64,000 nt of DNA from Cyanophora paradoxa CCMP329 (Eukaryota; Plantae; Glaucophyta). The notes beneath the pieces are model-generated. The model saw only the letters and a list, made by a program, of their open reading frames with translations. It searched no databases and was not told the origin of the DNA. The stretch lies in the NCBI GenBank assembly GCA_004431415.1, contig QPMI01000049.1, positions 1 through 64,000 of the forward strand, read 5' to 3'. The position numbers were made by a program, and so were the translations under genes. This document shows, piece by piece, positions 1 through 26,800 of this stretch. Every line of letters starts with the position of its first letter. Position 1 is the stretch's first letter.

Positions 1-127
1 TGGCGCGCGTGGGCGGGCGGGCCCGCCTCGTCTGCAGGCGCTGCGCGCGCGGCCTCTTCGCCGACTTTCGCAGGATCCGCGACAGGGAGCTCACGGCAGT
101 ATTTCTAAGTCCTCCCCAAATTAAGAA

Positions 128-379
128 ATGGCCTCCCTGCTGTTCGATAGGGATATGTACCAATGCGCAACCATTTCGAGGGCATCTACCGCCTCGCGTG
201 CGCAGAGCAGTTCCGCGCCCGCACTACACGGACCACCGCACGCACGGGCTGAGCAGGCCGGGGGCCGCCAGCTGCTGCAGCACCACGGGGGCGCGGCGGC
301 GGAGCGCGACTGGTCGCCCTCTGGATTATAGCGGGGATCCTGTGGGTACCTCCTCTTCGACCAGTGTAATTCTCAGTGA
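128..379 (+). CDS. Small viral hypothetical protein with C-terminal hydrophobic segment (frameshifted)
   Basis: ATG at 128 follows ATTTCTAAG (101). Frame-corrected reading gives MASLLFDRDMY..NHFEGIYRLACAEQF...LVALWIIAGILW. Confidence 0.4.
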
Positions 380-390
380 TCCCGTACCCG

Positions 391-725
391 ATGTCTCGAT
401 CTGTCCCTTACTGGGCCCCAATTGATACGCAAATTGAGATGCTGCGCGCTCGCATGCAAAAGCTGACGCTCGAAGAGGATCCCACGGATGTGCCTGAGCT
501 GAAGGCGGGTTGGCCACGCTGCCGACGGATATCGTCGAGACATTCGCGATTGGGTGTACAGACTGCAGGACGAGGTCCGTGCACGGCTCTGGCAAATCGT
601 GATGGGCCAGAGGGCCGCGGCTACCGTAGCCTCGACGACCAGAGGGACGCGGCCATGCGCAGGTGGGAGAGGCAGTTCCCGAGACGTACGGGGGTGCGAA
701 CCCATATTTTTCTGGCGGTGGTTAA
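391..725 (+). CDS. Viral hypothetical protein (frameshifted)
   Basis: MSRSVPYWAPIDTQIEMLRARMQKLTLEEDP...YRLQDEVRARLWQIVMG, preceded by TAATTCTCAG at 367. Confidence 0.5.
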
Positions 726-728
726 GCT

Positions 729-992
729 ATGCCGGAGACGCAGAAGAGCCCGCGAAAAAGGCGCCCACGAACGGACAGGAGAAGCCGACAAAGGCGGAGG
801 TGAAGGAGGCGAAGGAGAAGCTGAAGGGCCCGCCCGAATTTCCAAAGGGGCCGAAGCCGCTGTACGAGGACGTCTCGCCCGGCGAAATATTCGTGGCGAT
901 GCGCCCGACGAAGCAGGGGAAGAAGGGGGGCGATAAGAAGGACGGGAAGGAAGACAAGGCCAAGACCGATAAAATTTCAAAGGCCACCCTAA
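729..992 (+). CDS. Small Lys-rich viral protein
   Basis: ATATTTTTCT at 704 then ATG at 729. K/E-rich reading EKPTKAEVKEAKEKLKGPPEFPKGPKPLYEDVSPGEIFVAMRP. Could instead be fused to its neighbours. Confidence 0.4.
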
Positions 993-1001
993 GAAGAGCA
1001 A

Positions 1002-2829
1002 ATGAGGGGCTCGCCTCGCGTTTCGCGCCCGCAACGTGCTGGCAGTCCGGGGGCGGGGACTCGCACATCACGCCCTTTGAGAGCGAGAAGTACGCGCGCT
1101 TCCAGCAGATGGCAAAGACGGCCTTGCACCGGTCCGACGACGTGCGTCGCATCGAGGATAGGCAAAAAGTCGATAAACTTGCAGAGGTAGAGGCGCAGGC
1201 AATTGCAAATGCGTACTACATCAACAAGTTCAAAGACATGGAACAGGAAATCGACGGAGAGTACGAGGAGGGCTTCCGCGCTTGGCTCATGGGCCAATCT
1301 GCCTTCACGTCTGGAACGAAAGCGCTGGGGCCGGCGCTGCGACGTGGACGGTAAGAATCTAACTGTTCTCCCGGCGTACGTGAATTTTGCATGTCGAAGG
1401 AAGACCAAGTCACGGAATTCTTGAAGCGCAAGAAGCGCCTTGAGACGCTCGGCCCGATGAACTCGATGATGCCTACTATTATTACAAGTACATCATCAAT
1501 GGCGAAGAGTTCAAACCCACTAGCATTTACGCACACGCAGCATTCCCCGATGGCAAGCCGCCCGATTATTCGGAGAAGAACACCTACAAACCCTTTGCCC
1601 AGGCCGATCCGCCGGACGAAGACGATGAAGGCCCCGGGCCCAACGAGAGTCGCCAGCGCGATGAACGTGCAGAGATCCGACGCCTGACCAAGAACCTCTC
1701 GCGGCTCAGCGGAATTTTAGAGAAGGAGAGGGACCAGCGTGCACGACTTACGCAACGCGACAATGATGCGTCGATGAGCGCGGCGCTCAGGCCCTTAACG
1801 GGAATGGCGCCAAGGAAGCGCTCATCCAGGCAGAGCTGCCGTACAAGAAGCCGAGCGTGGCCTTTCGCGCCCCCGCAGGCCAAGGCCGCCCCTGGCAACG
1901 GAGACGGCGATGTAGATATGGGCGATGGAGGGGGAGGCCCAGCGACGCGCCACCGAGGCCGCCGCAGACGCCCCACTGGCGCCCAGCCGGCCCTTCCAGC
2001 CCCGGCGACGGTGGCCAGGCCATCCGCGCCCCCGCGGAGCAGCAGCCCCCGCCCCGCCCCGCCCGAGCCGCAGGCGGGGCCCTCGCGCCCGCCAGAGGTG
2101 GTAGCGGCCGAGGCGGCGGCCACGGCTGCGGCCAACGCCGTCGCGCAAACTTTTGCCAGTGCCGGGGCTGCCCTCCCCCCGGCGGTGGCTGTACCCCAGC
2201 TCTTCGATCCCGGTCAGCGGCCCTCGTCACCGCGCGCACCCATCGAGAACCTCATCGACCCCAAGAGAAACGCAAGGGGGTTCGAAGCAGGGCACCGCGG
2301 CATCCATGCTTCTGCAGGGTTACAACAGGCGCACGGACATAGCCAGCGAACGGTTGGGACAGGGCCGCGAAGAAGTGCTCGCAAAGCGGCGCAGCGGCAC
2401 TGCGGAGCAGTACCGCGCCGTCGTAAGGGAAGACCATCGCCAGGAACTGGAGGCGGCGGTGGCCCGCCAGTTGCGATGGAAGAAGAGGCTGTGAATGAGG
2501 CTGTGCAGGCACTCGAGGCAAGCATCGCGAACGAAATCGAAATGGAAGATGCACCCGAGACTGCCGAACGTGAAGCCATCCAAATGGAGGAGGACCTCAA
2601 AGCGGCAAAGGTGAGAGTCGTGTTCGACGAGCTCGTGGCGAAGGTTCAGCGAGCCGACAATCTGGAAGAGTTCCAAAAGACGGAATTGAAGAAGAGGTTC
2701 GTGATAAAAGCAAAGATGCTGCTGGACTTGCCGAACGACATAATCGAGGCCGTTCCCGAAATTGCAATTCGAAAGTTCATGAGGGTGACTTCGACGCGCG
2801 TAGCCTGTACAAGGTTGCCGAGCAAGTGA
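1002..2829 (+). CDS. Large viral protein with conserved N-terminal domain and low-complexity/coiled-coil C-terminus (multiple homopolymer frameshifts)
   Basis: Corrected reading EGFRAWLMGQSAFN...WDGKNLTVLPGVREFC...LETLGPDELDDAYYYYKYIING. I recall this motif pattern from mriyavirus-like conserved proteins (not verified). The acidic coiled-coil end lies directly upstream of the MCP. Confidence 0.6.
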
Positions 2830-2877: not shown

Positions 2878-4320
2878 ATGGCTTCCGCGCTCATCTCCGC
2901 CCCCACCACCGCCCTCGCGCAGTCGCTCCTGAGCTCGAACTCGTCCGTGCACGTGAACGACTCCTTCGACACCGCGACGCCCTTCGTGGACGAGGTGCTG
3001 GAGGTCAGCCCGTCCAGAGCGGCATCAGCTTCGGTCAGACCCTCGATTTCATCATCCCGCACTCGGCGCCCCTCATCAACGATATTTGGCTCAAGGTTAA
3101 GCTGCCTGCGGTGGCCTCCGGGAAGATTTACCTCCCGAAGGCCGGCCTCATCCTGCTGAAGAAGGTGAAGGTTTTCGTGGGCACGCAGCTCGTCCACGAG
3201 TACGAGGGCGCCTACGATGCCATCTACGACGAGCTCGAGCAGGATCGTTCCGTTCCGCACACGGTCAACCTGATCAACGAGTGCTGGGCGACACAGGTTC
3301 TGCTGCGCCGCTCCCAGCGGGCGCAGGTGCTTCACATCCCGCTCCGCGTTCTCACCGGTTACGGTCGCAAGTTCGCCGTGCCCTCTATAAGCTCCGCGGC
3401 TCGGGCAACGACCTCAAGATTCAGATCACGTACGCGAGCCACAAGGATGTTACGGCCACCTGGGTCACCACCGGAATCCACACCGACAGTGGCCTGACGG
3501 CGACCACCGACCTCGATTCGAAGCTCGTGCTGCGCTACACCCACGTGAGCCCGTACGAGCTCAGCCTCCACCCCAACAGCGTCACGTGGGCTGGCAAGTA
3601 CATGCAGTCGTACAACGTAAAGTTCACGAGCGGCACGAGCTTCCGCCTGCCGTTCACTGGCGTCTGCTACGAGATGGTAATTGTCGTACGCGACGGCGCC
3701 GCGACGGACCAGGGTACAACTTCTGGAAGTTCCGCCCCTTGAGCAAAATCGACCTCAAGTGCGATAACATCAAGGCGCTCGACAGCTCTATTCACGACGC
3801 GCATTTCCTGCGCACCGCCATCGCGAACCGCGAGCACCGCAACGTGCCCACGCGCAAGTACCTCGAGCTGCTGCAGGGCTTCGCCGACAACACCGACGCC
3901 AACGGCGCAAAGGCCCTGGCGGAGGCGGCCGATACGACGTACGGTACCAACGAGGTTTCCATCATTAATGCGCTGCGCAATGCCCTTCACCCGCACCCGT
4001 GGTCGGGCAACGACACCGCCATCACCACCCTTGACACCCAGGATTACAACAACAGCGACATCATGCCAGCGGTGCAGAACGGCGCGGCAACCGCCGCCTC
4101 CGCTCAGTACGGCACCGAATTCATCTACGCTATTCCCTTCGGCACCGAGGTGGCAGACGACACGAAGATGTTCGGCGGCCTCGACTTCGGCGCCTTCAAG
4201 ACGATCGAGCTCACGCTCACCACGGCGGGGACGCTGACGACGCCGATCGCCGATATCTACTGCCGCTACTACAACGAGATCAGCTTCATCAACGGCGGCG
4301 CCTACCGCCGCTTCCATTAG
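2878..4320 (+). CDS. Major capsid protein, NCLDV-type double jelly roll (~480 aa, several frameshifts)
   Basis: Joined frames give FGQTLDFIIPHSAPLINDIWLKVKLP, LLKKVKVFVGTQLVHEYEG, LHIPLRVLTG..AVPLYKL, FRLPFTGVCYEMVIVVR, IYAIPFG...GGLDFGAFKTIELTLT and IYCRYYNEISFINGG. These follow the order of Capsid_N/Capsid_NCLDV motifs (FG...GDL...L...LP; IGGQ.ID; LYIPL.F....ALPL.AL; NHPVKEL; YSF...PSG..NFSRI; YA.NYNVLRI..G). Confidence 0.9.
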
Positions 4321-4411: not shown

Positions 4412-5527
4412 ATGACGAAGGGCCATTCCATGATGGACATCGGGGAGGGCTCTAAGAAGCAGCGCCAGTCGCTGAAGAACGACCTGAAGGGCGAGGTGAC
4501 GGGCATCATTGAGAAGTATGCGCCGGCACGATCCTACCCGAGGTGCACGTCACAGATCCGGGCAAGGCGGACATCTACACGCCGGAGGATCAGGCGCGGG
4601 GCCTCGGGTTGACGGCCCTTCCCACGAAGACCCTGCCCGCGATGAAGTACACCCCGCAGATGGAGAAGCTGATGCGGATGGGCATTCGGCAGCAGCTGCA
4701 GAATGCCTATCCCAACCGCCAGATCAACGAAGAGGACGTCGAGAATGCGTTCGCGCTGCGGAAGGAAATCATGATTCGCGATTTCGACCAGTGGGCCATG
4801 ACGGCCTTCGACCTGAAGCAGCCCGGCGTGGCTAAAATGCTCGAGGAATATTACCCGAGCTGCTCGAGCGAATTACGAACATGATCGAGCAGGATATCGA
4901 AATTCAGCGTTTCGATAAGTACCAGAAGGTTTTCTTCCCGATGAACTACGACGATCTCGTCATGAAGTGGGCACGCGAGCGCGGCTGGATCAAGACGATG
5001 GAAGAAATCGAGAAGGAGAACCTGCTGGGGCCCGCCGGGCGCTACGGCCCCGTCGATGCTGCCGGCAAGGGCGGCTTCCGCGCCGGCTACACGCCCGACC
5101 TCTCGCCCATGTTCAACGCGCAGACGGCGAACATCAGCAGCGAGCACAACAGGCCGTACGGACGGAACGACGTCGACTTCAGCAAGGGCAATCCCTTCGG
5201 AGCAATGCTCATGGACCAGCAAGGCACGCGGGCCCTGCGCTGCCGACGGCATGGCCGTATGCGGACCAGAATCTGCTGCCGAGGGTGGTGAACCCCAACA
5301 ATCGCGTAGGGAAAGACTTTACAACCTCGGATCAGCGCGAAGCTCTCAACCAGGTGCGACAGGAGGGTACTGTCGCAGGGATGGAAACCGACGATCAGTT
5401 CGACATCCAAAAGGCATTCCAAGCCATGGTCGTGGAGACTCAGGACAGACAGAAGAACATCCGACGGGAAACCAACGCACGCATGGCGGAAATGTACCAA
5501 AAGGCGGCGGCATCCCTGGCCCGCTAA
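4412..5527 (+). CDS. Conserved viral protein downstream of MCP (frameshifted, ~370 aa)
   Basis: Four overlapping ORF pieces join via 1-nt indels. Core FDQWAMTAFDLKQPGVAKMLEEYYPELLERITNMIEQDIEIQ...DDLVMKWARERG; recalled as a mriyavirus-like core gene pattern (unverified). Confidence 0.65.
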
Positions 5528-5549: not shown

Positions 5550-5879
5550 ATGGCAGCGACGGAGGCGACGCTGGGCGAGCAGATCGAGGCGCGCTGGGGC
5601 CGCTTCCTCGACCTGCTGGAGCCGGAGGCCAAGGAGCCGGGGGTGCGGGCGCAGATCCAGTCGCTGCGCGGCATAGGCGCCACGGCGGTCATCGTTCTCT
5701 TTAGGAGGCACATCAACGCGGAGGCCGAATTAATTAAGGCGCGGGACGACGGAGTTTTCGAGAAGCTGCCGCAGGAGTACGCCTCGGCCGTGCGCTCGCT
5801 CTTCTACGGGAGCGGGCCCGAGCTGCGCGAGAAACTGTGGCTTTACATCGAGCTCTTCGTCGAGCTGACGTCGGAGTAA
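5550..5879 (+). CDS. Small helical protein resembling a conserved NCLDV family (F...I..RD...F...K.W.Y...L)
   Basis: Intact 109-aa ORF with RFLDLL...FRRHINAEAELIKARDDGVF...REKLWLYIELFVEL; upstream TAATTTCTAAAG at 5526. Confidence 0.7.
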   Translation: MAATEATLGEQIEARWGRFLDLLEPEAKEPGVRAQIQSLRGIGATAVIVLFRRHINAEAELIKARDDGVFEKLPQEYASAVRSLFYGSGPELREKLWLYIELFVELTSE

Positions 5880-5914: not shown

Positions 5915-6717
5915 ATGGACCCCTCGGCGATGCTGGGCTTCGACGCGCTGGCCGTGGACGGGCCGAACCCGGTGGGGATCCCGCAGCCTCGGAAGAAGGG
6001 CCGCCCCGCGAAGGAAGGCAAGGAAAAGGGCGAGAAGGCGCCGAAGGCCGACAAGACGTCGCTACCGGGCGACGGGCCCACGGTGCCGCCGACGGCGCCG
6101 AGCAAGGGCGCGAGCTTCAGCGTGCAGGAGCACATCGAAATGACGAAGAAGAAGGAGCAGAGCGTGAAAAAGGCGCTGGGGATCGACCTGCAGGAGAGGC
6201 CGCGCGACGAGGCGCAGGTGGACGTGGACGAGAAGAAGCAGGTTCTGCGGCAGATCGCGCAGTACAGGCGCTCGTTCGGGGCGAGCTGACGTCCACGAAG
6301 AAGCTGAGCCTCGCCACGCCGCTGGACGAGCTGAAGGAAGAGTACGAGGAAATTCAGCGCGAGCTGAGCACGCGGGGTTCGCTGGAGGCGGCGCGCCTCT
6401 TTCTGATCGCGGGCATGCACTCGCTGGAGCACCTTAACAAAGCGTACGATCCGATCGGCCTGAAGTTAGACGGGCTCGGGCAGGCGACGCTCTCTTCCAT
6501 GGACCAGGTGCAGCCGATCTTAGAGGAGCTGGTGATTAAGTACTCGCGCTACGTGACCCTGGGGCCCGAGGCGCGCCTGGGGATGGCCCTGGTGCAGACG
6601 GTGCTGGCGGTGCACGCGGCCAACGCGAACCCGGAGATGATGAAGGAGGTGACGGAGGCGGCGGCCTCGACGGCGGCGGAGCCCAGGGCGGTGGGCGGCA
6701 AGTTCAACGGCCTCTGA
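5915..6717 (+). CDS. DUF5767-like conserved NCLDV protein (one frameshift near 6285)
   Basis: ELKEEYEEI...SLEHLNKAYDPIGLKLDGL...ILEELVIKY...GPEARLGMALVQTVLAVHAAN matches the NCLDV pattern E.LN..FDP...KLDG...EL..KY...PE..L...H..N. Confidence 0.7.
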
Positions 6718-6758: not shown

Positions 6759-7552
6759 TTATTCGTCTAAACTACTGCATGGGGTGGTGTACATAGACTC
6801 GGGGTTTAGGTAGGGCTCGAAATCGGCCTCGTTGTCGTAGGGCTTGAAGGCCAGCTCGGGCGTGCGGCCGGCGAAGCGAAAGGCGCCGACCTTGCACTGC
6901 TGCACGGCGAGGAAGGACCACTTGAGGCCGAACTTGCCCTCGGGATGGCGTAGGCGGTGTCGATTTTAACGAGGGCCGCCACCAGGTCTCCGGTGCCGAT
7001 GGTGGCGCGCTCGGTGATGAGGTAGTTGGACATGTCGACGACTGGGATCGTCTTGCGCTTGCCCGCCATCGTCTGCGTGCGGATGCGCATGTTGAGGTAC
7101 TTGTAGAAGGCCTGGCCCGACTCCTTGTCGACCTTGATGCGCACGCTGGGCGTCTGCAGCACCGAGATCTGATCCTTGGAGAGGGCGCGCCCGGGCGAGA
7201 CCTTGAGCTTGGCCTGGTTCTGCTGCACGAACTCGCAGAATTTCGCGTCCAGGGCCTCCAGCAGCTTGAGGAACTCGTCCGCGGCTGGGTTCGTCTGGCC
7301 GTCGACGGCGCTGAGATCGGTGAGGTCCAGCGTGTAAAATCCGCCGTTTTCTTCCATGACGAAGGCCTTCTTCTCGTCGCTCCACGCCTTGCCTTGCTCG
7401 GTGTTGATGCACGGGTTGATCGTGACCATGGGCGGCGCGTACATCATGAGGCCCTGCAGGCCGTCGTACTTGGCCTTGATGCGGCCGTTGGCATCGATTT
7501 CGAAGGCGAGCTTGGCGGGGTCGATCTCGGTGGCGTTGCGGACGGTGGCCAT
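6759..7552 (-). CDS. ssDNA-binding protein, NCLDV DUF2738 / T7 gp2.5-like OB fold (frameshift near 6942)
   Basis: YTLDL...EFLKLLEALDAKFCEFV...IPVVD...GDLVAALVKIDTAYAIP then EGKFGLKWSFLAVQ and an acidic/aromatic tail (YDNEADFEPY). Confidence 0.75.
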
Positions 7553-7617: not shown

Positions 7618-7956
7618 TCAGGCTGACCTCGGGTGAGCGCTCAGGTGATTCAGGTAAAACACGTGTTCAATTCGTCTCACTGGGGAGGGGAGAGCCTCAA
7701 TCACGGCTACGCGAATATTCGAGAGTCTAAATCTGGCGCTGGGGCTGGCGACGGCGTACAGGGTGATCTCGTTCTTGGCGGGATTGAGCATGATGTGCTG
7801 GAAGCAGTCGCCCTTGCGGCACTCCAGCGAGATGTTGCGCAGCAGCCTGCAGTAGTTGAAGCAGATCTCGCCGTTCTCGTCGAGATCCTCGTCCATGGCC
7901 TCGTACTCGAAGATGCCGAAGGTCAGGCAGCAGGTCTCGTACTTGGGGGCGCACAT
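7618..7956 (-). CDS. Small Cys-rich viral hypothetical protein
   Basis: Intact 112-aa ORF with coding-like GC3 bias, co-oriented with the SSB. Confidence 0.55.
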   Translation of the reverse strand: MCAPKYETCCLTFGIFEYEAMDEDLDENGEICFNYCRLLRNISLECRKGDCFQHIMLNPAKNEITLYAVASPSARFRLSNIRVAVIEALPSPVRRIEHVFYLNHLSAHPRSA

Positions 7957-8053
7957 TCTTGATTTCTCTTGGCTGTGAAGTGTGAGCGAGGGCGCGGCGC
8001 GGCTGCGGTTTTGAGGCCGTTCAGGTGAGGGTCAGGTGAGCGCTCACCTGAAG

Positions 8054-9508
8054 AGGGGGGGGGAAGTGACGCGGACGCGAATACGTCATAGTCGAATACG
8101 TCATAGTCCAAAACCTGGACTCGGGACTCGGCCCAGGCCCCGCCGGTAAAAAAATAAGCTCGGACTTGGCGCCATTTTCTGAACCCCGGCTAGCTGCTTA
8201 ATCCAGTACCATGGAGCCCGCCATCTCCCAGCTAGTCTCCCAGGGCGCCAAGCTCGACAAGGCCCTCAGTATCTACCTTCAGCTGATCGAGCTGGCCTGG
8301 CCGGAGCCAATGATAGCTCAGGCCTGCAAATCGCTCCACGTGGCGTTCGATGCGCCGTTCTCAGGTGACCCGACTCAGATGACATCCTGGACCAAGGAGG
8401 AGATAAAAGCCGACTTCGAGGCGCTTTTCTCATTTATGAGCAAGAAGTATGCCGAAATCGAAGCAGCTAAAGCCGCAGCCGCAGCCGAAGACGAAGGCGC
8501 AGAAGGCACCGAAGCCTCAGCCGAAGGCCCTGCCGGCGACGAAGGCACCGAAGTTCAAGGCGCTGGGCCCTCTGCAGAAGGCCAAGGCCAAGGCCGACCT
8601 GCTTCCGCGTAGGCCCAAGGACATAGCCAAGGAGGCCAGCAGCCACAGGCCCGACTGGCCGGCGCCGGCGCCCTACCGCTACCTCAAGCTGGACAAGCGC
8701 AACGATACCGGCTTCACCAGGAGGAGGTGGCCTGAGCCCCTTCGGTGGCTGAAGCCAAGGGAGATCAAGTCTGGAGGCGGTATCGAGCTAGCGCTAGCGC
8801 TAGGAGGAGGCGGTGCAGACTTAGAGGAGCAGGCGCTGCTAGATACCATCAACTTGGGCAGGGTAGAGCTGAGCTAGCTAGCTGGTATCGATATCTAGCT
8901 AGCCTAGCGCTAGCCCAGTGCTTAATTAATTAACTGAAAGGTTGCGGAGGTTGCGGACGCGTCACAAATACGTCATAGTCGAATACGTCATAGTCCAAAA
9001 CCTGGACTCGGGACTCGGCCCGGGCCCTGCCGGTAAAAAAAAGAGACTTGAACAAAAACACCGTACCCCGGTATTTAACTTGAAATCATCATGACATCAT
9101 GTTCAAGTTGCTATGACATTAACTACATTCAAAAGCAATGAATGCAATAGTGTAGTCAAGCGATCGCGAAAGGATAGCGATAGGATCGGGATAGGATAGG
9201 TGACACGATAACGATAAGATAAGCTTGCAGATAACAGGGGTACAGTATTATTATTTGAAACTTGGCGAGAGTCTGGGCCCAGGTCCCAAGTCCAGGTTTT
9301 GGACTATGACGTATTCGACTATGACGTATTTGTGACGCGTCCGCAACCTCCGCAACCTTTCAATTGGACATTTGGACATTTGGACATTTGGACATTTGGA
9401 CATAACATGTACCCCCCTCCCCAGGGCCCGGGCCGAGTCCCGAGTCCAGGTTTTGGACTATGACGTATTCGACTATGACGTATTCGCGTCCGCGTCACTT
9501 CTCCCCCC
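8054..9508. repeat. Nested inverted-repeat locus: four copies of core AATACGTCATAGTCGAATACGTCATAGTCCAAAACCTGGACT (two +, two -)
   Basis: 8063-8134 is the reverse complement of ~9429-9501. 8935-9008 is the perfect reverse complement of 9289-9362. (TTGGACAT)x5 lies at 9364-9403. Confidence 0.95.
8211..8877 (+). CDS. Viral hypothetical protein (stop at 8612, or frameshifted to 8877)
   Basis: MEPAISQLVSQGAKLDKALSIYLQLIELAW...; CATTTTCTGAA at 8172; lies between the two direct copies of the repeat core. Confidence 0.55.
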
Positions 9509-9565
9509 ATCCTACGTTCGCAGCCGCCGGGCACCTCCCACAATTTTCCGAGGTACCCAGCAAGC

Positions 9566-9858
9566 ATGGACTTTACTGACTGCGCAGGTATCAAGCAGGA
9601 GCCCGAGGACCTTCTCTCCGCCGCCGCCGCCGCCTCCGCCCCCAAGCAGCGCCGCCGCCGCGGGCCCAAGTCCCTTAGCTCCGAGCCCGAGATCCTGGCG
9701 ACGCCGGCCCGCGAGCCAGAGACCGTGGACTTGACCCTGGAGGAGCCCGCGCGCGGCCCGCCGCGCCTTCTGATCCTGGCCGCCGCGGCCGCCGCGCTCT
9801 ACTACGCCGCCGGCGCCTGGGCCCGCAGCTCTCGGGCCTGGCCCGGAACCTTTTCTAA
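9566..9858 (+). CDS. Small viral protein with NLS-like basic patch and C-terminal transmembrane segment
   Basis: PKQRRRRGPK and LLILAAAAAALYYAAGAW; upstream CAATTTTCC at 9541. Confidence 0.5.
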
Positions 9859-9868
9859 GTCTTGCCCA

Positions 9869-10209: not shown

Positions 10210-10235
10210 TTTTCTAGCCCTTCTACCAGCAAAGA

Positions 10236-10520: not shown

Positions 10521-10537
10521 TATTGAGTACAGAGCCC

Positions 10538-10939: not shown

Positions 10940-10955
10940 GGTTCGCTCGCTTTAC

Positions 10956-12118: not shown

Positions 12119-12166
12119 CGCGGGACCGATTTGAGGGAGGGTTGAGAAAAAATACCGCCTCGGGCC

Positions 12167-18160: not shown

Positions 18161-19041
18161 ACGCGGGCGAATCGAGCGCGAGGTTGCGGGCATGTTCTAG
18201 GTGCTAAATGCAAGGGATAGAGCGGCAAGAGAGCGAGCTGGCACCTGCGGGATGCGGCGGAGTGCTCCGGCTCGGGCGCCATCGAGCTTTCGAAGGTCCG
18301 CGGCCGGCGCGAGCGACCCTGCGCGTGGCGGCGTGAGTGCGGCGTCGAGAGAGCTTTCCAGCGCCCAAAATCTGAGGTCCGGAGCTAGCCGTGGTGCGGA
18401 GAAAGAGGTTGCGAAGTGAGGCGCACCTCCGAATCGAAAGGAGCGAGGCGGCGGCTCTCCGGGCTGAGCGGAATGCAAGCTAGTGCCTCTGGCAAGTGCT
18501 GCAAGGAGCGCTGGGCCCGGGCGCTGCGAGATGCGCTGCCCGGGCGCTTTTTTTCGGGTTGGGGTACTGTGTTTTGAGTCGAAACACGTGGAGCAACCGC
18601 GTGAGCCCAAAACTTTCTGAGCTTAGGAGCAAAGGCGGTCGAGCGCTCGGCCGCGCAAGCTAGCTCCGGCGCGCTCTGCCTTCTCTCTACACGTGTCGCA
18701 TTCACGTGCGCTCAAAACTTTCTAAGCTTCGGTCAAGCAAGGGGCTAGCGCTTCCGAAGTTCTACGCGCGCGCCTCCCGTCCGCCGGGCCGACGGTCTGC
18801 GCGTCACATCGTCCGCTGCGCCAAGAAGGAGAGATCAAGACGGTGTCAACCGGGTCTAGTTGAGCGCTTAAGGTCGGACCAAAGCCTGTCCCGACCCTCC
18901 CAGATCTTTAAATTAATATCTCAGAAGGTCGAGACAGCCGCTGAGCAGTCCGGATCCAGACGGACCAGAGCCTGTCCCGACCCTCCCAGATCTTTAAATT
19001 AATATCTCAGAAGGTCGAGACAGCAGTCCAGACGTCGACTA

Positions 19042-20001
19042 TAGCTAGCCAACAGACGTTGACTAGCCTAGTAGATCTAGAATTTTCCAAGCCTAGCTAT
19101 AGAGAGACGACCATGGCAACCGGACGCGTGTCTCTCGACGTCGACGCCTTCCTGGCCCGTATGCCCGGGCCCGGGGTACAGCAGATAGATCTGAGCGAGC
19201 AGGAGTGCAGCTTTTTCGTTCGATTCCCTCTCGTCGAAGTCCAGAAGGCCTGCAGCCCGACCCTGGGGACGGCTTTCTGCGTCTTCCACCCGCCCTGCAT
19301 CACCCCCAGCCACTTCTCGGGTGCCGAGGATGAGACGAGCACCGCGGCAGCCTGCGCCTTTGCAACCAAGTTCGGAGGCTTCACTTTCTCTCGCCCCTTG
19401 GATAATGGATTCAAGGCTGCCTACGTCCTACAGAGCCCGGAGGCTTGCGATCTCATGGCATGGTTCTTTGGGAGCTCGAGCGGCCTGGAGCTCGGTGTGG
19501 ATGGCACGGGGGGCTACGTTCTAGCTAGCCAACAGACGTTGACTAGCCTAGTAGATCTAGAATTTTCCAAGCCTAGCTATAGAGAGACGACCATGGCAAC
19601 CGGACGCGTGTCTCTCGACGTCGACGCCTTCCTGGCCCGTATGCCCGGGCCCGGGGTACAGCAGATAGATCTGAGCGAGCAGGAGTGCAGCTTTTTCGTT
19701 CGATTCCCTCTCGTCGAAGTCCAGAAGGCCTGCAGCCCGACCCTGGGGACGGCTTTCTGCGTCTTCCACCCGCCCTGCATCACCCCCAGCCACTTCTCGG
19801 GTGCCGAGGATGAGACGAGCACCGCGGCAGCCTGCGCCTTTGCAACCAAGTTCGGAGGCTTCACTTTCTCTCGCCCCTTGGATAATGGATTCAAGGCTGC
19901 CTACGTCCTACAGAGCCCGGAGGCTTGCGATCTCATGGCATGGTTCTTTGGGAGCTCGAGCGGCCTGGAGCTCGGTGTGGATGGCACGGGGGCTACGTTC
20001 T
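19042..20001 (+). repeat. 480-bp in-frame tandem duplication of the helicase 5' region
   Basis: TAGCTAGCCAACAGACGTTG at 19042 and 19522; ORF 19059..20072 contains the 160-aa block twice. Confidence 0.95.
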
Positions 20002-22710
20002 GCGGGGGCCGGCGCCCGGGCCGCGAGCGGAGCTCCTCCCACTCCATCCAGAAGCTCGGCGCCCCGCGCTAAGCCCATCCCGGAGCCGGGCGCTCTCCTG
20101 GATTCGAGCCCAAGCCTGCCGGCCTTGGAGCGGCTCCTGGACCGCCTGCGCAAGAACAAGGCGGTGAGGGACGAGATCTGGAAGGCGGGGCAGAGCTGCG
20201 CGCGGACCTTGGCCTGCACGACGCCCGCCGCGTTCAGCACCTTGGAGTCGAGCCCGACGGGTCCATCACCCTCGTCCTGGGCGGGAGTCAGCCGGGGGCG
20301 CCGGCGGCTCGAATCTCCATCCAGGCGCACGGTATTGAAGTCGAGCTCGAGGGGGAGGGGACCGGAGGGGAGTCGGGCAGCGTGGCACAGACCCGCTATG
20401 TGACCGATCCCTCGCAGCCTGTCGCCTTCGACATTGCCCTCCCCTCCCTCCTGATCGCGCTCGAGTCGACGGGCCTGGAGGCTTGCGTCAATGCAGTGGA
20501 TGAACGCCACCTCTCGTGCAAGATCCTTACCTCCGCATTCGGGGCGCTGGAGCAGAACCCGAGATCCGCTCAGCCGCAGGTCGACGTCATCTGCTCGGGA
20601 CTCAACACGGGGAAGACGCAGGCGCTGATCGATGCGTACCTGGACCCGGCCCTCGCAGGCGGCTGGCGAGTGATCCTCGTGACTTGCCGCCGGGCCTTCT
20701 CCCGCGACCTCAAGCGTCGCATTGATGCTGCGGAGTTGTCAAAGGACGCCGTGCTTTACATGGACATCAAGAAGCCACCGGAGAGCTCAAAGGGATCGCA
20801 TGGCAAGTGGGGCTTCCGCCATGAGGAGTGCAGGTGCGTCGTCATCACATGGGACTCGCTGCACAAGGTGCTCGAGGACTGGGAGGGCTGGTCGACGGCG
20901 CCGCTACTGGTCGTGCTGGACGAGCTCTCCTCCCTCACGAAGCACCTCACTCGAGCGGCACCCTCGAGCCCACCGGCCTGCACCTAGGTATGCGGTCAGT
21001 GCCTCGAAACGCGCGCTGCGTGGGCCTATGGCGCGGCGTGATGAAGGCATCGCGCATCGTGGCGATGGACGGCTTCGTTCGGTCGGTCGATCTCGCGTAC
21101 CTGGCAGAGTCGGCGCAGGAGGTCGGGGCGCGCCTGGGGCTCCTGTACAACTCGCATCGCACCTGCGACTGGAAGATGCGCGTGTCAGACAGCCCGGCGC
21201 ACGTCGAGGCGGACATCATGGTGCAGTGCCGACCTGGGCGCTCGCGGGCCATGATCATCGCGGAGACGCCGGCCAAGGCGATCGAGCTGCAGGAGAAGAT
21301 TGCGAAGCAGGCGCTGGAGCAGCTCAGCCTGGGCGGCGCTCAGTACGTGACTCAGCTCGAGGCAGGGCCCGAGGACGGCAGCGGCGCACCGTTCACGATC
21401 GGGCTCATCGTTGGGCAGGCCAAGGAGAAGAGCGTGCGCTTCACGAACGAGGGCCCAGTGCGCATCGTGTCGATCGATGTGTCTGAGGAGGGCGCGTACA
21501 AGGCCTGCGACGTGCTCATCGCAACTTCCGCGCTCGGGGCAGGCGTGGACTTTTCGGACGCGCACTTTGACAAGGTCTACGGCGTGTTCCAGGCGGAGCC
21601 CGCGCAGCTGGAGGCGGACGACATCGTGCAGCTGCTGTTTCGAGTCAGAAGGCTGCGCAAACGCAGCACGCCCGACGGGGAGCACCTGCTCGTCGCCGTG
21701 CGCAAGAACCGGACGCCCTCGGTTGCGGTCGGCGCGGCGGCTGCGCACTGGCGTGAGAGCGACGACGACGAGAGCTCGGACGACATGCAGCGCTACCTGG
21801 ACCTGAAGGCTAGCCACCGCGGGAGCCGCCGCGCCGGCATGCCCACTCGGCGCCTCGCAGTGGCAGCGCGCCTGCGGCTGATGTCGACCTGCGCGCTGAT
21901 GAACGTGCAAGTCACGGAGGATCAAAACCCGAGCGGACCGAAGCAGGAGAAGGAGCAGCGGCTGCGCGAGATCAGGAGCGTGCTGGAGGCGGGCGCGCTG
22001 GAGCCCGTCGATCTGTGGAGCACGGTGCTGGCCTGGAGGCAGTCCCGCGAGTCTCTCGCTAAGCTGGACATCGAGAAGGTTGCTTCGCTTGCTCGCACGT
22101 CGATCGCCGCGTTCCTGGCCAAGGATCCGAGCGAGCTGACCGAAGGAGACGTCGCCTGGATGTGGGATTCGTTCTACTCCATCCCGCTCACTGCCGTGGT
22201 CACGCTGGTGCTGAAGCATGGCGCGGACGTTGCCGAGATCGTGCCTACTGCTGAGCGCCTCAAGGTATCGAAGGTCGTCGCGCTGTTCAAGAAACTCTTC
22301 GGCTGGCGGGGTATGGAAAGCTCGCGGGGCGTGCTCTGTGGTCGGACGAAGCCTACGCGGCCCTGGCGTCGCCGGAGGGTCGGGAGGCGTACGCGGCTCT
22401 GCAGAGTCTGGACGAGCGCGCGCCCCGCTTCGATGCAGCGGACGGTGAGAAGAAGCGGCTCTCGCAGCAGTCTTGGCAAGTCATCAAGTACCTGCTGGAG
22501 AAGTACCTCGGAGTGAGACGCGCTTTCTCCGACGCGGACGGAGGGCAAATGGGCAGCCGAAAGCGACGCTACATCACGTGGGAGGAAGACATGCTCGACG
22601 ACGCAGTAGAGCGCCAGGCTAAGCAGGCAAGGGCAGGCATGGCGCCAAGCTTCCCAGAGGTTTACAACGTTTTCTCCGACTGCTATGCTCTCATTCACAG
22701 GCGCGTGTGA
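19113..22710 (+). CDS. SF2 helicase, herpesvirus UL9/Herpes_ori_bp-like replication origin-binding protein (full-length copy, frameshifted)
   Basis: Motifs CSGLNTGKT (I), ILVTCRRAF (Ia), VVITWDSLHK, LVVLDELSS (II), IVAMDG (III), VLIATSALGAGVDF..HF (V) and QLLFRVR (VI) are typical of UL9-like helicases of herpesviruses and NCLDVs. Confidence 0.88.
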
Positions 22711-22811
22711 TTGTCGGATGTCACAGTGTGGACTTCGCGAACGGGATGCGCGTGCCAGTGTGTAAATACGAACGTGCGAATTCAAGTGACGTCATGCATA
22801 TGATCAATGAA

Positions 22812-22860
22812 TGTCTCGACTTTTTGAGATATTAATTTAAAGATCTGGGAGGGTCGGACA
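22812..22860 (-). repeat. Inverted copy of the 50-bp palindrome downstream of the helicase
   Basis: TGTCTCGACTTTTTGAGATATTAATTTAAAGATCTGGGAGGGTCGGACA is the near reverse complement of the 14509 copy. Confidence 0.9.
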
Positions 22861-23139
22861 TTGCGAGGCGGACGAGAGTGAGGGCATGCACTCTCTATGT
22901 GTCCCGACCTTTTCTGAACAACTCATGATTGCCGTATCATCGATCTGCATTTACTCACTTCGTTCTCTGTCGCTTGCACATGCGCGGTGTGGGATTACTA
23001 ATTAGATCTAGTCTCCCTAGCCCTCTGCGGCCGCCTTCCTGCCCCCTGCAAAGAGCAGCTCAACCAAATCCTGTGGGGTCTGATTCATTGCAGACTCGCC
23101 TTCCCGCCTGGGCCTGAGCTACACCAAGCTACGGTGAGT

Positions 23140-23402
23140 CCGACCAAGAGACGTGTCCGGACCCTCCCTACTTTCTTTATAGATTATTGGAAAGGTCCGG
23201 ACACTAGAGGAGGGAGGGCGTACATAAGTAGTCTGACCAAGAGACGTGTCCCGACCCTCCCAGATCTTTAAATTAATATCTGAGAGGGTCGAGACACTAG
23301 AGGAGGGCGTACATAAGTAGTCTGACCAAGAGACGTGTCCCGACCCTCCCAGATCTTTAAATTAATATCTGAGAGGGTCGAGACACTAGAGGAGGGCGTA
23401 CA
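23140..23402. repeat. Three 89-bp tandem units, each carrying the 50-bp palindrome
   Basis: Palindromes at 23154-23203 (diverged), 23247-23296 and 23336-23385; the period is 89 bp between the last two. Confidence 0.92.
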
Positions 23403-24047
23403 ACTTAAACTCGCGCAGCGCCGCCTGCTCCTCGCTGAGGTTCTCTGACTTCATTCGATCGCTGTAGGGCTCGGGCGGAGTTCCAGCCTTCACGTGCGAC
23501 CAAAATAGATGTAAGCACCGCCGCATGAGCTGAATGTACCTCTCGTCCCGTCTGACGTACCACGTTCGCACGCGCAGAGGCGTGAAGCAAAAAAGTTCGG
23601 CCCACTCGCGGCCCGTTATGTCTAAAAGTCCTTGCAGCTGCGTCATGTAATAGGTAGGAACCTTGTCGTAGAGTTCTTGTTTGTACGGACATTTTATTTC
23701 GAGTATGCGATCGTTTCCGATTAGCCCGTCCGGGCTCCCGCCAGGAAGGCAGTTCCTTATGTTCGTGCAATCCAGTATGTTGCACGTCCACGTTATTGTT
23801 CAACGTTTTGTAGAGAGAGACGCGAAGGGCTCATAGTCATGCCGTAGGTTAGGGCAGGGTTGTCAAAGTTGTTTTCCTCCGCTATCCCGCTTAGCTCCGC
23901 CCACAGGCGGGCCCTGGATTTCCAGGGGTTTATACCGCACGCAGCCGCAAAATTAGATGCAGTTAGTTTTTCACGGCGCGCCGCGTGCCACGCCGCGCTC
24001 CCCTGTTGTAAGTTCTCGCAAGTCTCGCAATCTGTATCGGTATGCAT
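23386..24047 (-). CDS. YqaJ-like / lambda-exonuclease family PD-(D/E)xK nuclease (frameshifted)
   Basis: QGSAAWHAARREKLTAS...YG...FLAGSPDGLIG...LEIKCPY...YYMTQLQGLLDITGREWAELFCF after frame correction. Confidence 0.9.
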
Positions 24048-24097
24048 AGCTTAGCCTCGCAGTAGCGTTTAGAATTTCTTGATGTGTGCGAATGCAT

Positions 24098-24827
24098 ATG
24101 TCTGATAATCAGACTACCCTCCCACCGCTATCGGGGTACATCCGAGATTACACTAAGCAGGTAAACGGGCTGATCGGCTGGGTGAAAGAAGAGATCCCCA
24201 ATACAATGCGAGACGGGGGCATGGCTGCGACGTATTTGCGCGATGTGGCACGCAGAGGCCTCGGGTCCAGGGTAGACATCCGAACGTATGAGCCGCCGGT
24301 GTACGAAATCGAACACAGGGACGACATGGGCAGGGTTCGCGATGAACTTCGCAAGCTCTGGTGGGCGTTCGGCTCGCGCAAGAGCCCCATGACCTACCTG
24401 CCCAAGACGTTCAGAGAGTTATACTGGATCTCTTCCTGAATGCGGGCACTCGCACGGAGATCATCAATCGCCCGCTCAATATTTTGAAGCACTACTTCCA
24501 AGGCTTCGTTCACCACGCCAAAAACAAGGAAGATGAATGGGTGGTACCCTATGTCCCCCATCGGATTTGATCCCTGAAGGATGGGACGAAGAACAAGACA
24601 ATATGGAAGAACGGTTCAAGAGATACAAGTATAGAAAACTGACGCCTGCCGGCCCACCGTACGGCCCACCGGCGCCCACGGCGGAGCAGCGCCAAGAGAT
24701 ACTGCGGGAGGGTCAGATTCGCAGGTGGATGGAGTACAGCAATGATCCGACGAGCTGGTCGCCAGACGAGGCCGAGCTGCGGAAGCGCGCGAGGCTGCCA
24801 GGCCCTCGATACCCCGACCGCGAGTAG
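24098..24827 (+). CDS. Viral protein with internal F-box-like motif, paralog 1 (frameshifted)
   Basis: LRKLWWAFGSRKSPMTYLPKDVQRVILDLF...EQRQEILREGQIRRWM...WSPDEAELRK. Confidence 0.6.
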
Positions 24828-24861
24828 GGGTACAGGTAGAAATTCTCAGCGAGCCGCGAGC

Positions 24862-25599
24862 ATGGCGCGAACACGCGAGTCCGACGTGCTGTACAACAAC
24901 GGCGACCTGGACGGGGAGATTCGACAGCGGAACGTGGACTTGGAGGATGCGAACGCAGTGCTGGAGGGGAGGCGCACGTCCTCAGGGGGCGGCTCGCCGG
25001 CGGAGAACTTCATGGAGCGCGTGCTCTACCTTGTGCGCTGGATTAGAGACGAATTCCACGACGAGCGAGAGCTCCCGGACAGGGAGATGATCAGGGCCGC
25101 GGGCTTGATGGGTATGACAGAGAACCCGAGATCGTACCTGAGGCGCGAACGCAGGGATCTGAACGGCGATTGGGCCGACCTGCAAGCGCTGTGGACGGCC
25201 TTTGCGAACCGCAAGAGCCAGATCCTTGCCCTGCCCGCGCAGGTACAGCAGCGTATCATTGATTTCGTAGCCCCCTGGCGCGACGAGTCCCTCCAGCAGC
25301 CATTCATGCAACCACGCTTCCTCTCCGGGCTCAGGAGCGCGTTCTTCCACTTGGCCGTGAGCAGCGACCGGTATTTCACACCGCAGAGGATCGTTCACGG
25401 CGAATTCGGCATACCCCCCGAGTGGCTGAATTTTGCCACCGTACCCCTTCCCCACCCCGCCTCGAAGGCCCCCCTCCCCTACCCCGAGCAGCGTGAGTCA
25501 CTCAAGCGTCAGAGGGAGGTACGCGAATGGATGGACGACACCAGCCACTGGGTACAGGGCGAGGCCGAATTACGCAAGTTCGGAAGGTCCGGGCAGTAA
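24862..25599 (+). CDS. Viral protein with internal F-box-like motif, paralog 2
   Basis: LQALWTAFANRKSQILALPAQVQQRIIDFV...EQRESLKRQREVREWM...WVQGEAELRK; GAAATTCTCAG upstream. Confidence 0.65.
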   Translation: MARTRESDVLYNNGDLDGEIRQRNVDLEDANAVLEGRRTSSGGGSPAENFMERVLYLVRWIRDEFHDERELPDREMIRAAGLMGMTENPRSYLRRERRDLNGDWADLQALWTAFANRKSQILALPAQVQQRIIDFVAPWRDESLQQPFMQPRFLSGLRSAFFHLAVSSDRYFTPQRIVHGEFGIPPEWLNFATVPLPHPASKAPLPYPEQRESLKRQREVREWMDDTSHWVQGEAELRKFGRSGQ

Positions 25600-25813
25600 C
25601 AGCGGGGGGTACAGCATTCAGTTAGAGCCTGAGCATCGTTAGAGGCCGGGAGGCCCCCCGAGGGGTACACCGGCTGTTACTCCCCGCGTCGGTTAGTGCT
25701 AGCCCCCCTGTTAGTGCAGCGTGTACCTGATCGCAATATAACACCCAAACCTCCGCGACGCGTGACTCATGCAACCTCCGAGGGTTAACAATGCATTGAC
25801 AGCGAAGGGGCAA

Positions 25814-26800
25814 GCTCGAGAGCTCAACGCTTCACAAAGGCCCACATATATATTTGTAATTACGTATACGTATACGTATACATATGTGTGCATGTATACG
25901 TATACGTATACGTGCCGGCATTGCGTGTGGGGCCTTATAATTAAACACAGAGTTGATGGAAAGAAAGCTTGAGTAAACGTATTATTTCGAATCGGTGAGC
26001 TCGAGCGAGAATTACAAAGGGGGAGAAATATATATATATATATAATTTGTTCAAATACGATTGCGACTCCCTCGGTGCGGCCGTGCGGCATGCGCGCGTA
26101 ATCGCAACATCGATATCGATATCGTAGCTGAAATCATAATCGCAACATCGTAGCTGAGACTTGAAATCGTAATCGCAACACCGTAGCTGAAATCGTAATC
26201 GCAGCATCCGATGATCACAGCATCGTTACTGATTGCGAATTCTAAGCCTTAATTAAGCTTGGTGCTGGTGCCGCAGCGCTAGATGCGAGATTCTGATCAA
26301 TCGTAATCCAGCTTACTTCTTTATATATATAGCTAGCTTTGTGAGGACCCCTTTTTATTCGCGCCGGGGGCGCCGCGGGGCGGGGACAGGATCATAATTT
26401 GGAGATCGACGTCATTCTTAAAATTTCTACAATTAAAGAAGCTTATATACGTATTATATATATGATAATATATACAAGGTCCGAGTTAATAATTGTATTA
26501 AGACATAAATTTGACCGTCGATCGACGTCGACGTCGAATCGTCGTCGATATTATTTGTTTTTATACGGGCATGTCGAGCCGATTAGGAAAAAAACGAGCT
26601 GTGGTATATATACGTACGTACGCGTCGTCGACGTCGTTCAACTCGTCGAAGACGAACCGATAGGTGATTCGTATACGTATGGAATCGTATCATAGTATAC
26701 GTATTCGACGTCACGGCGTATACGTATACTACGGTATACTACTAGTAGTACGTATATATACGTCTCAGCTACGTAATACGTATACCTGCCCGGATACCTG
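25814..26800. repeat. AT-rich hairpin/palindrome and short tandem repeat zone at the virus-host boundary
   Basis: Perfect 22-bp stem 25862-25883/25892-25913; ~26-bp repeats AATCGTAATCGCAACATCGTAGCTGA x4 at ~26097-26207; dense TATACGTATA and CGACGTCG words. Confidence 0.8.

Follow-up and report, generated by a model that had tools for sequence, protein, structure and literature searches.

In this study, we have analysed a stretch of 64,000 nucleotides of the glaucophyte Cyanophora paradoxa CCMP329 (contig QPMI01000049.1; hereafter the window), which contains only the right arm of a small endogenous dsDNA virus, in one of the many copies of this virus; the left end lies outside the window. Our preferred interpretation, which we consider probable, is that of a multi-copy endogenous virus with an NCLDV-type capsid, one that likely depends on host polymerases for its replication in the nucleus and that a spliced antisense RNA likely helps to keep dormant. 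Two elements are new here: the spliced antisense transcript over the helicase gene, found in two datasets judged to be RNA, and the AT-cored palindromes that flank this gene. The viral block (positions 1 to ~25,850) is made of compact genes of viral type and is followed by a TA-rich spacer and host genes (Table 1).

Table 1. Features of the viral block and its flank (positions of the window)
Feature	Position	Strand	Remarks
Endogenous small dsDNA virus, right part	1..25850	.	From gene content and depth drop; right end approximate
ORFs upstream of MCP, broken by missing bases	128..2829	+	Short reads carry additional bases here
NCLDV-type double jelly-roll major capsid protein (MCP)	2878..4320	+	Three frameshifts in window; 481 aa in intact paralogues
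Conserved gene immediately after MCP	4412..5527	+	Same place in P0010 and P0039; no family match
109-aa ORF	5550..5879	+	99% identical in copies with other MCP types
DUF5767 protein	5915..6717	+	Pfam PF19071, E=4e-13; one base missing near 6277
SSB candidate	6772..7552	-	Region covered by X17 and X18 contigs
112-aa ORF	7618..7956	-	GC3 0.83
Four copies of 55-90 bp repeat with 15-bp iterons	8053..9511	.	Around AT-rich gap; 8056-8154, 8932-9041 direct; 9273-9365, 9422-9511 inverted
133-aa ORF	8211..8612	+	Between iteron blocks
Five short ORFs	9566..11282	.	9566+, 9869+, 10236+, 10939-, 11282-
Frameshifted ORF	12108..13300	-	GC3 0.97 in 5' part; no family match
Two copies of 50-bp imperfect palindrome, AT core	14424..14558	.	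Just upstream of helicase
Spliced antisense RNA over helicase gene	14516..22854	-	Extent approximate; from joints and loose ends in X17, X18; introns 1-5 of 11: 15204-15265, 15335-15387, 15532-15587, 15648-15696, 15785-15835; introns 6-11: 16042-16158, 16227-16291, 16387-16447, 16563-16623, 21632/21635-21685, 21741-21796
UL9-like SF2 helicase	14649..22710	+	14649-16725, then 21668-22710 with duplicated block skipped
Tandem duplication of 12263-16725	16725..21667	+	Inner 480-bp repeat
Palindrome copies after helicase	22812..23402	.	Inverted 22812-22860; three direct in 89-bp units 23137-23402
YqaJ-like (lambda-exonuclease-type) nuclease	23386..24047	-	Convergent with helicase; short reads show extra bases
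Two weakly paralogous terminal genes	24098..25599	+	24098-24827 in two pieces; 24862-25599
TA-rich low-complexity host flank	25850..27050	.	First host gene starts 27,082

The right limit of the block is drawn from three DNA runs, in which contig depth drops from thousands to the single-copy level near 25,855; single-copy contigs begin at 26,071. On the host side, 7 of the 13 ORFs scanned have Pfam matches (TPR, zf-C2HC, GARS_N, SNF2, HSA, CFAP97). Block and host are contiguous in the assembly, with all 30 depth bins covered in the three runs, and no short-read contig bridges 25,801-26,071 among those listed (32 of 663 pieces, repeats skipped). A Helitron-type end at 25,850 was considered by eye and not seen. 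The original prediction was of at least 26 kb of compact intron-less genes: the compact block does extend to ~25.85 kb, but 4.9 kb of it is a tandem duplication, so that the unique viral DNA amounts to ~20.9 kb. The two duplicated copies differ by 14 one-base gaps and 0 substitutions, and at 16725 short-read contigs run on in unduplicated form; the duplication is either peculiar to the present copy or an assembly artefact. The frameshifts that we checked do not hold up: they are long-read assembly errors, as short-read contigs have an extra base there and intact 481-aa paralogues exist. Between 10 and 12.3 kb, cover is deep in run X1 and close to nil in X14.

Looking for other copies in the genome, as had been proposed, revealed many copies rather than a lone insertion. 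MCP gene models are present on at least 30 distinct C. paradoxa contigs (the window's own locus possibly included), and these, with C. paradoxa EukProt accessions, support the reading of a small virus, endogenous to a glaucophyte and with a capsid of NCLDV type. In a tree restricted to C. paradoxa copies, the MCPs form three clades, 55-67% identical between clades, and gene order, judged by gene-model number, is the same on 8 contigs. In three runs, single DNA contigs of the viral part have 8-129 times the depth of the host contig next to them (41, 38 and 129 for the 3' part of the helicase), a rough sign of many copies, and the element recurs in DNA sequenced in 2012, 2019 and 2024. On tig00021428, a window-type MCP and its neighbours (100% over 72 and 111 aa) stand beside a helicase that is only 35-47% identical, and on tig00020608 the 67% MCP type occurs together with 98-99% identical small ORFs. 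The element is thus a family with conserved gene order and swapped modules.

The prediction that the MCP follows NCLDV motifs is supported at several levels. Capsid_N (Pfam) matches the window piece at E=0.0057 and four intact paralogues at E=1e-8 to 1e-4 (3 of 4 above the cut-off, the fourth at E=9.5e-5), ESM features place the protein at 0.98 to Capsid_N/Capsid_NCLDV clusters, and Foldseek, with a model of pLDDT only 36, returned 75 matches at E<=1e-3, the named top ones being mostly NCLDV MCPs; the best match among PDB sequences has E=0.23. A double jelly-roll MCP of NCLDV type is one of the traits of Mriyaviricetes. Contigs covering the MCP gene are absent from X17 and slight in X18, which is no evidence of silence. 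As predicted, DUF5767, UL9-like and YqaJ genes accompany the MCP (Herpes_ori_bp, E=3e-9; YqaJ, E=1e-10 and 8e-6, with PHROG 434 RecE-like at E=3e-15). The SSB gene of the same prediction is unsupported: the candidate has no match in Pfam, PHROGs or PDB, and a fold search gave 0 at E<=0.001 (model pLDDT 40). It may resemble T7-type NCLDV SSBs. A Pfam scan of 150 of the 155 six-frame window ORFs of at least 75 aa matched five, to Capsid_N, DUF5767, Herpes_ori_bp and YqaJ only; DNA polymerase (PolB), RNA polymerase, protease and integrase therefore went undetected in the window, in agreement with the prediction. The ORFs before the MCP have no Pfam, PHROGs or usable ESM match; a counterpart of 1007-2097 likewise precedes the MCP of another copy (tblastn of P0031). 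Three short ORFs (10236+, 10939- and 11282-) have 98-99% identical homologues on other contigs, and the terminal genes fall in a cluster of 6 gene models. A short AT-rich motif, picked after reading the sequence, lies 18-41 nt before the start codon at 10 of 18 candidate starts.

Without the duplicated block, the helicase measures ~1,040 aa (1007 aa in its paralogue P0063), with Walker A at 15,655-15,680. It is a UL9-like SF2 enzyme, one of the two helicase types of Mriyaviricetes (SF3, or UL9-like SF2 with an N-terminal extension), and a search with it gave 2 matches, both from C. paradoxa. The AT-cored palindromes on either side of the gene appear origin-like by analogy, the upstream one folding as a DNA hairpin of -11.5 kcal/mol on the minus strand, and the iteron region may be a second origin-like region.

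The sense genes look intronless, as predicted. From the strand opposite the helicase gene, however, a spliced transcript is made. The introns of this antisense RNA are short, with GT..AG ends and branch-point-like words on the minus strand. Nine joints are common to X17 and X18, one more is in X18 where X17 has no alignment, and the eleventh intron is deduced from loose ends that both sets show, their NAG acceptors being different. The DNA runs have none of these joints, and the chance of a random skip having such splice ends is 0.4%. X17 and X18, from two separate studies, were judged to be RNA from their own splice joints, none of the listed runs being catalogued as RNA; since both are contig sets, the antisense strand is read from splice signals and levels cannot be ranked. 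Across the helicase, the assembled form is the spliced one in both sets and, because one intron spans the Walker A codons, it cannot be the helicase mRNA. We rejected a reading of the skips as CT..AC introns of a sense mRNA: Walker A would be lost with one of them, and it is the minus strand that carries the canonical signals. The antisense RNA is probably non-coding (every frame has 7 or more stops in 720 codons), although its spliced form does contain a 301-codon ATG frame.

We consider it likely that this RNA helps to keep the virus dormant. Small RNAs and four RdRP homologues are on record for C. paradoxa (accessible text of PMC3700990), and its virus-derived genes are described as methylated and silent (accessible text of PMC12344493). 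The chances are slightly under even that the RNA is leaky read-through trimmed by the host spliceosome at chance sites, without effect on the virus. Antisense splice signals are no commoner than in 300 synonymous shuffles (4 observed vs 2.6 +/- 1.3 expected), so that the splicing looks cryptic; the same number of shuffles gave no sign that the sense strands avoid splice signals; no clear coding frame is seen; and one more intron of the minus strand, close to the right end (24398-24455), suggests general leftward transcription. Against read-through alone, the nine joints recur in two studies, in both of which the spliced form was assembled across the helicase.

Taking a dormancy role for the RNA as the preferred reading, a possible life cycle can be proposed by comparison with herpes simplex virus, where UL9 is an origin-binding SF2 helicase acting at oriS, the UL12 nuclease acts with ICP8, and LAT is a spliced antisense RNA over a key gene. 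Host RNA polymerase II would transcribe the viral genes from the AT-rich motif, the UL9-like helicase would bind and open the AT-cored palindromes as UL9 does at oriS, and host DNA polymerase would copy the genome. The YqaJ nuclease and the SSB candidate would drive recombination, which could account for the module swaps and, with host repair, for the insertion of the virus, which would need no integrase, into TA-rich DNA. Transcription of the minus strand would come in from the right, out of either the palindrome region or the convergent YqaJ unit, and cross the helicase gene, the host would splice the transcript at cryptic sites, and the product could dampen the helicase by transcriptional interference or RNAi. 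The likeness (origin-binding SF2 helicase, AT-cored palindromes, nuclease with candidate SSB, spliced antisense RNA) would be one of operation, an analogy and not membership; the capsid lineage is unrelated and no viral polymerase is seen. The most far-reaching version, which we regard as speculative and rather unlikely, is a still-functional latent family of glaucophyte viruses, a deep new branch of small NCLDV relatives with UL9-bound palindromic origins instead of HUH rolling circle, integrase-free integration, and latency by a host-spliced antisense RNA against the origin-binding helicase, in the manner of a herpes LAT switch but in a virus with a double jelly-roll capsid. If true, a glaucophyte virus would be open to study in a laboratory alga.

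With regard to its relatives, the family most likely represents a new, deep-branching lineage that falls within Mriyaviricetes or next to them, and its placement inside this group is, in our estimate, slightly better than an even bet. All 14 MCP homologues are C. paradoxa gene models, and a search of 1.84 billion representatives gave 5 matches, namely the 4 known paralogues and one 98-aa piece, which reads like the 456-aa type. The original prediction of an integrated mriyavirus-like element is partly supported. The NCLDV-like MCP, the UL9-like SF2 helicase and the PD-(D/E)XK-type nuclease fit it, as does a window in which no polymerase was seen; the genes that define the group, however, were not found in the window either. 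No packaging ATPase, VLTF2, VLTF3 or RuvC was detected by Pfam in the 150 window ORFs (right arm only, with frameshifts lowering sensitivity), nor an HUH endonuclease in the same arm, where a motif scan met two H-x-H words only, in the end of a family-less ORF and in an antisense frame. Mriyaviruses are without DNA and RNA polymerases, their SF3 and SF2 helicases are mutually exclusive, and a subset of Yaraviridae has a UL9-related SF2 helicase (PMC11253617). Our element resembles this subset in its small genome (here inferred), NCLDV-like MCP, absence of a polymerase from the window, UL9/R8/F1055L-related SF2 helicase with N-terminal extension, and PD-(D/E)XK-type nuclease. It differs in having no detectable MCP sequence relative, in the HUH, ATPase, VLTF2/3 and RuvC genes being unseen in the right arm, in its integration in dozens of copies, in a helicase N-terminus where no primase domain was seen, in carrying DUF5767, which is not among the named mriyavirus core genes, and in a nuclease that passes the Pfam YqaJ cut-off and is apparently YqaJ proper, whereas Yutin et al. 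called the mriyavirus nuclease not orthologous to YqaJ (PMC11253617). Mriyaviricetes are also marked by a 35-45 kb genome and the Mriya_1, _48, _50 and _51 proteins. The Gamadviridae/NDDV (Pleurochrysis endemic viruses) share an algal host, small NCLDV kinship and an SSB gene (here a candidate), but have an SF3 helicase (SF3_hel2) and two HUH genes where the right arm of our element has an SF2 UL9-like helicase. Polintons and typical PLVs, which are marked by a PLV-type MCP, a pPolB or helicase-polymerase fusion and an RVE or tyrosine integrase, are a poor fit, as the MCP here scores as NCLDV type and no polymerase or integrase was detected in the window.

A real but weaker possibility is that the integrated, multi-copy virus is not a mriyavirus and belongs to another NCLDV-like cluster of small viruses (Zoravirus, Zephyrvirus, VC40 and kin) or to a lineage of its own, with UL9-bound origins without HUH. 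In its accessible part, 10.64898/2026.06.19.733378 presents viruses of 15-45 kb whose MCPs are NCLDV-like as forming a continuum; beyond MCP, helicase and nuclease, no mriyavirus core gene was seen in the window; IMG/VR and JGI scans gave no locus with an MCP relative; and no yaravirus is among the named Foldseek matches, many rows being nameless. Those clusters, similar in NCLDV-like capsid and small genome, mostly carry RVE or tyrosine-recombinase integrases, with pPolB/TV-Pol and other replication genes common (same part of that source), and none of these is seen in our right arm. Membership in Mriyaviricetes, our favoured placement, also draws on 10.1101/2025.04.19.649669, whose accessible portion assigns regions embedded in host DNA of a Glaucocystophyceae assembly to this group by MCP tree. 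They are probably the same family as ours; the passages concerned (one sentence, beside the Fig. 5f map) mention no copy number, mosaicism, palindromes or antisense RNA.

With such regions already in a preprint, the predicted novelty of the lineage, in a host group held to be barely characterised for viruses, was overstated: PMC12344493 (accessible text) reports giant-virus-type endogenous elements in C. paradoxa, and supplement 2 of Bellas et al. 2023 (PMC10120064) lists 366 MCP hits in 2 clusters for PLV-type endogenous viruses of its genome. The latter share host, many copies and double jelly-roll MCPs with our element, and their six example MCPs, compared by eye only, look unlike ours. For its part, the earlier sequence-only reading missed copy number, duplication, palindromes and antisense RNA. 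Mriyavirus-like viruses are candidate relatives of the giant-virus ancestor, and for almost all of them, known through metagenomes, there is no host. The alga studied here, a cultured model at the base of the plant lineage, carries dozens of copies, among them intact capsid genes of three variants, so that replication mode, integrase-free integration and latency become directly testable. For the quieting of such elements, whether by host or virus, the spliced antisense RNA opposite the helicase gene offers a concrete candidate that can be checked.

It is very unlikely that the block forms one end of an endogenous giant virus of larger size, with polymerase genes upstream. The NCLDV-type MCP, DUF5767, the giant-virus-type elements of PMC12344493 and a left end outside the window are compatible with it, but tig00020936 has only 13 gene models between MCP and terminal gene, a small genome is in keeping with the very short genes and with similar copies by the dozen, and no giant-virus MCP close in sequence was found in the searches. 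Least probable of all is a free or episomal virus in culture joined to host contigs by misassembly: the junction lies in TA-rich repeats, unbridged by any listed contig, and the viral-to-host depth ratios vary between runs, but divergent copies with three MCP types are spread over 30 contigs, the element recurs in DNA from three different years, and its transcripts are processed by the host spliceosome.

The element is a real, multi-copy endogenous small virus of a glaucophyte, related to the NCLDVs. From position 1 to ~25,850 the ORFs are short and densely packed, with a third-codon-position GC of 0.61-0.98 (27 segments), and beyond this lies a spacer rich in TA followed by host genes, where 7 of the 13 ORFs scanned have a Pfam match (TPR, zf-C2HC, GARS_N, SNF2, HSA and CFAP97). 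The original prediction assigned at least 26 kb to viral genes; the block does extend to ~25,850, but its unique DNA amounts to ~20.9 kb, because 12263-16725 recurs at 16725-21667, with an additional 480-bp inner repeat. The two copies differ by no substitution and by 14 one-base gaps. At 16725 the short-read contigs run on in unduplicated form, so the duplication either belongs to this copy alone or arose in assembly. About six bases at the joint (16720-16732) are, by eye, common to both parent sites, the pattern expected of microhomology-mediated repair. Near 25,855 the contig depth drops to host level in all three DNA runs. None of the short-read contigs listed spans the viral-host junction (25,801-26,071, where repeats were skipped), so the case for integration comes from the assembly and from the many capsid-bearing contigs.

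Five of the 150 six-frame ORFs scanned with Pfam (from 155 of at least 75 aa in the unique viral part) gave matches, namely Capsid_N, DUF5767, Herpes_ori_bp and YqaJ (twice), which bears out the DUF5767, UL9-like and YqaJ genes proposed beside the capsid gene. The same scan of the 150 ORFs found no polymerase, integrase or protease, in agreement with the original prediction for the window, and no packaging ATPase, VLTF, RuvC or HUH. That the major capsid protein (MCP) is of NCLDV type is upheld by its intact paralogues of 456-485 aa, since three of the four scanned pass the Capsid_N cut-off, and by ESM features scoring 0.98 to clusters in which 12-33% of the members bear Capsid_N or Capsid_NCLDV. 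Its AlphaFold model is poor (pLDDT 36); Foldseek gave 75 matches at E<=0.001, the named ones mainly NCLDV capsids, a result that supports the capsid type and not the family. The claim of an SSB gene found no backing in Pfam, PHROGs, PDB or fold searches, and the ORF is kept as a candidate, named for a putative resemblance. At the frameshift sites listed, short-read contigs carry one extra base, which at many sites has full depth and recurs across several runs; the breaks there are hence due to errors of the long reads, not to decay.

Genes of the viral block discussed in the text
Feature	Position	Strand	Length	Remark
MCP	2878-4320	+		four pieces in window
SSB candidate	6772-7552	-		
UL9-like helicase	14649-16725 + 21668-22710		~1,040 aa	1007-aa paralogue aligns along its length
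YqaJ nuclease	23386-24047	-		
Terminal genes	24098-25599	+		weak paralogues of each other, E=1e-4 and 3e-6 (pairwise BLASTP)

The named protein relatives are all EukProt gene models of Cyanophora paradoxa. It had been suggested that the host be searched for further copies, and MCP gene models were found on 30 distinct contigs (14 + 15 + 1), among which the window's own locus may be. The MCP copies form three clades with a between-clade identity of 55-67% (tree of 18 full or near-full rows), and the window's gene order, judged by gene-model numbers, is reproduced on 8 contigs, tig00020936 having the MCP as g16179, a homologue of the short viral ORF-11282 as g16187 and a terminal gene as g16192. 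On tig00021428 the MCP and its neighbours are of the window type, yet the helicase, ten models downstream as in the window, is merely 35-47% identical; on tig00020608, the 67% MCP type adjoins small ORFs that share 98-99% identity with those of the window. Modules are thus swapped between copies. Single DNA contigs over the viral part exceed the adjoining host contig in depth by a factor of 8 to 129 (17 and 12 for the MCP, 37-129 for the helicase), which is only a rough sign of many copies, as contig depth does not equal copy number. At 21700-22854 the ratio is ~129 in the DNA run X14 vs ~40 in X1 and X11, through either biased libraries or additional extrachromosomal copies. Joints in the DNA runs indicate that some copies are without parts of the right end that holds the terminal genes, and two skips without splice signals, at 10754-10799 (DNA run X1 and X17) and 10211-10271 (X17 and X18), are probably indel variants of other copies.

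An MCP profile search returned 14 proteins, every one from C. paradoxa and none from outside it, exhaustive searching with the last 203 aa of the protein gave 5 matches, and no related locus emerged when IMG/VR and JGI metagenomes were scanned for patterns; the lineage seems to be deep. The Mriyaviricetes, which are without polymerases, are defined by an MCP, ATPase, VLTF2/3, RuvC, HUH, PDDEXK nuclease, a helicase and four Mriya proteins, and a subset of the Yaraviridae has a UL9-related SF2 helicase (Yutin et al., PMC11253617, in the part available). The element, known here from its right arm, which the window holds, shares their capsid type and helicase, and we lean slightly towards membership. 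The accessible text of Bellas and Sommaruga (10.64898/2026.06.19.733378) describes other small viruses that have NCLDV-like capsids, and notes that mriyaviruses have no integration genes. A preprint, as far as its available text goes, reports a Glaucocystophyceae assembly with embedded Mriyaviricetes-related regions (10.1101/2025.04.19.649669); these are probably the family described here, whose presence is thus anticipated. The portion consulted of Bellas et al. 2023 (PMC10120064) gives 366 C. paradoxa MCP matches in two clusters, the six examples of which look, by eye, unlike the window MCP, and PMC12220804 mentions a C. paradoxa PLV in its accessible part. In supplement 2 of PMC10120064, a different MCP is placed at 8432-9370 of tig00020936, the contig of the C. 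paradoxa protein P0001, and belongs either to a neighbouring element or to the family's left arm as a second capsid gene. Outside subscription journals, we found no account of how many copies the family has or of its mosaicism, palindromes or antisense RNA, and the element's anatomy and spliced antisense RNA appear to be new.

In X17 and X18, two presumed RNA runs from different studies, the helicase gene is crossed by skips that are missing from the DNA runs. Nine antisense joints are common to both, one more is seen in X18 (in a stretch to which X18 alone of the two was aligned), and one intron was deduced from loose ends in both runs, with acceptors 3 nt apart between them. All 11 introns have GT..AG on the minus strand (the chance of such ends in a random skip is 0.37%), from which the strand is read, as the contigs carry no strand, end or level information; they measure 49-65 nt, with one of 117 nt, and in most a branch-point-like word precedes the acceptor. 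The Walker A codons fall inside one of them, so the spliced RNA is not the helicase mRNA. Joined in silico, the antisense RNA has at least 7 stops per frame over 720 codons, and it is probably non-coding, because the longest reading frame from an ATG (301 codons) falls in the codon-antisense register, which is likewise fully open over the 3' parts of the MCP and helicase genes. Its splice signals are no more frequent than codon usage predicts, which points to splicing by the host at cryptic sites. A twelfth minus-strand intron (24398-24455, in X18) shows that leftward transcription also occurs near the right end. Whether this RNA has a regulatory role is, in our estimate, evenly balanced. With the 11 introns removed from 14516-22300 (+), one plus-strand frame is open across all 720 codons, its product being without Walker A; when splicing downstream of 15,388 was frame-randomised, ~2% of cases stayed open likewise (computed post hoc), and the open frame may be chance.

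As the antisense RNA undergoes host splicing and an AT-rich motif precedes starts, the viral genes would be expressed by host RNA polymerase II. This short motif, picked after reading the sequence, lies upstream of 10 of 18 candidate starts and, by eye, before the host gene at 27,082. Antisense transcription could restrain the virus via interference or RNAi. For C. paradoxa, the available part of PMC3700990 describes four RdRP homologues and an abundance of small RNAs, and that of PMC12344493 and its preprint 10.1101/2025.04.15.648976 describes methylated, silent virus-derived genes; in the accessible supplement text, six gene/contig ids of the family had no match. Two copies of an imperfect, AT-cored 50-bp palindrome precede the helicase gene, one inverted copy follows it, and three more lie farther to the right. 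On the minus strand the palindrome forms hairpins with energies from -11.5 to -17.7 kcal/mol (folding without shuffle control); a second repeat family (8053-9511) has 15-bp iterons in direct and inverted pairs. Herpesvirus UL9 and oriS are the model for helicase binding at palindromes. By analogy, the UL9-like helicase may bind the 50-bp palindromes and open an origin, after which a host polymerase would replicate the genome. YqaJ and the SSB candidate could drive recombination, giving mosaics and, with host repair, integration.

The host part of the window has repeats of its own: four tandem 209-bp copies at 32448-33285, the first ones 100% identical, about ten 16-bp tandem repeats in an array at 35069-35238, and a ~540-bp unit in two copies, with short CA-rich repeats, at 60582-61685. 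A purD-like GARS_N lies at ~41.2-41.5 kb (-), and the GC-rich gene at 51000-56500 (-), with HSA and SNF2 domains, is presumably SWR1/EP400-like by its domain set.
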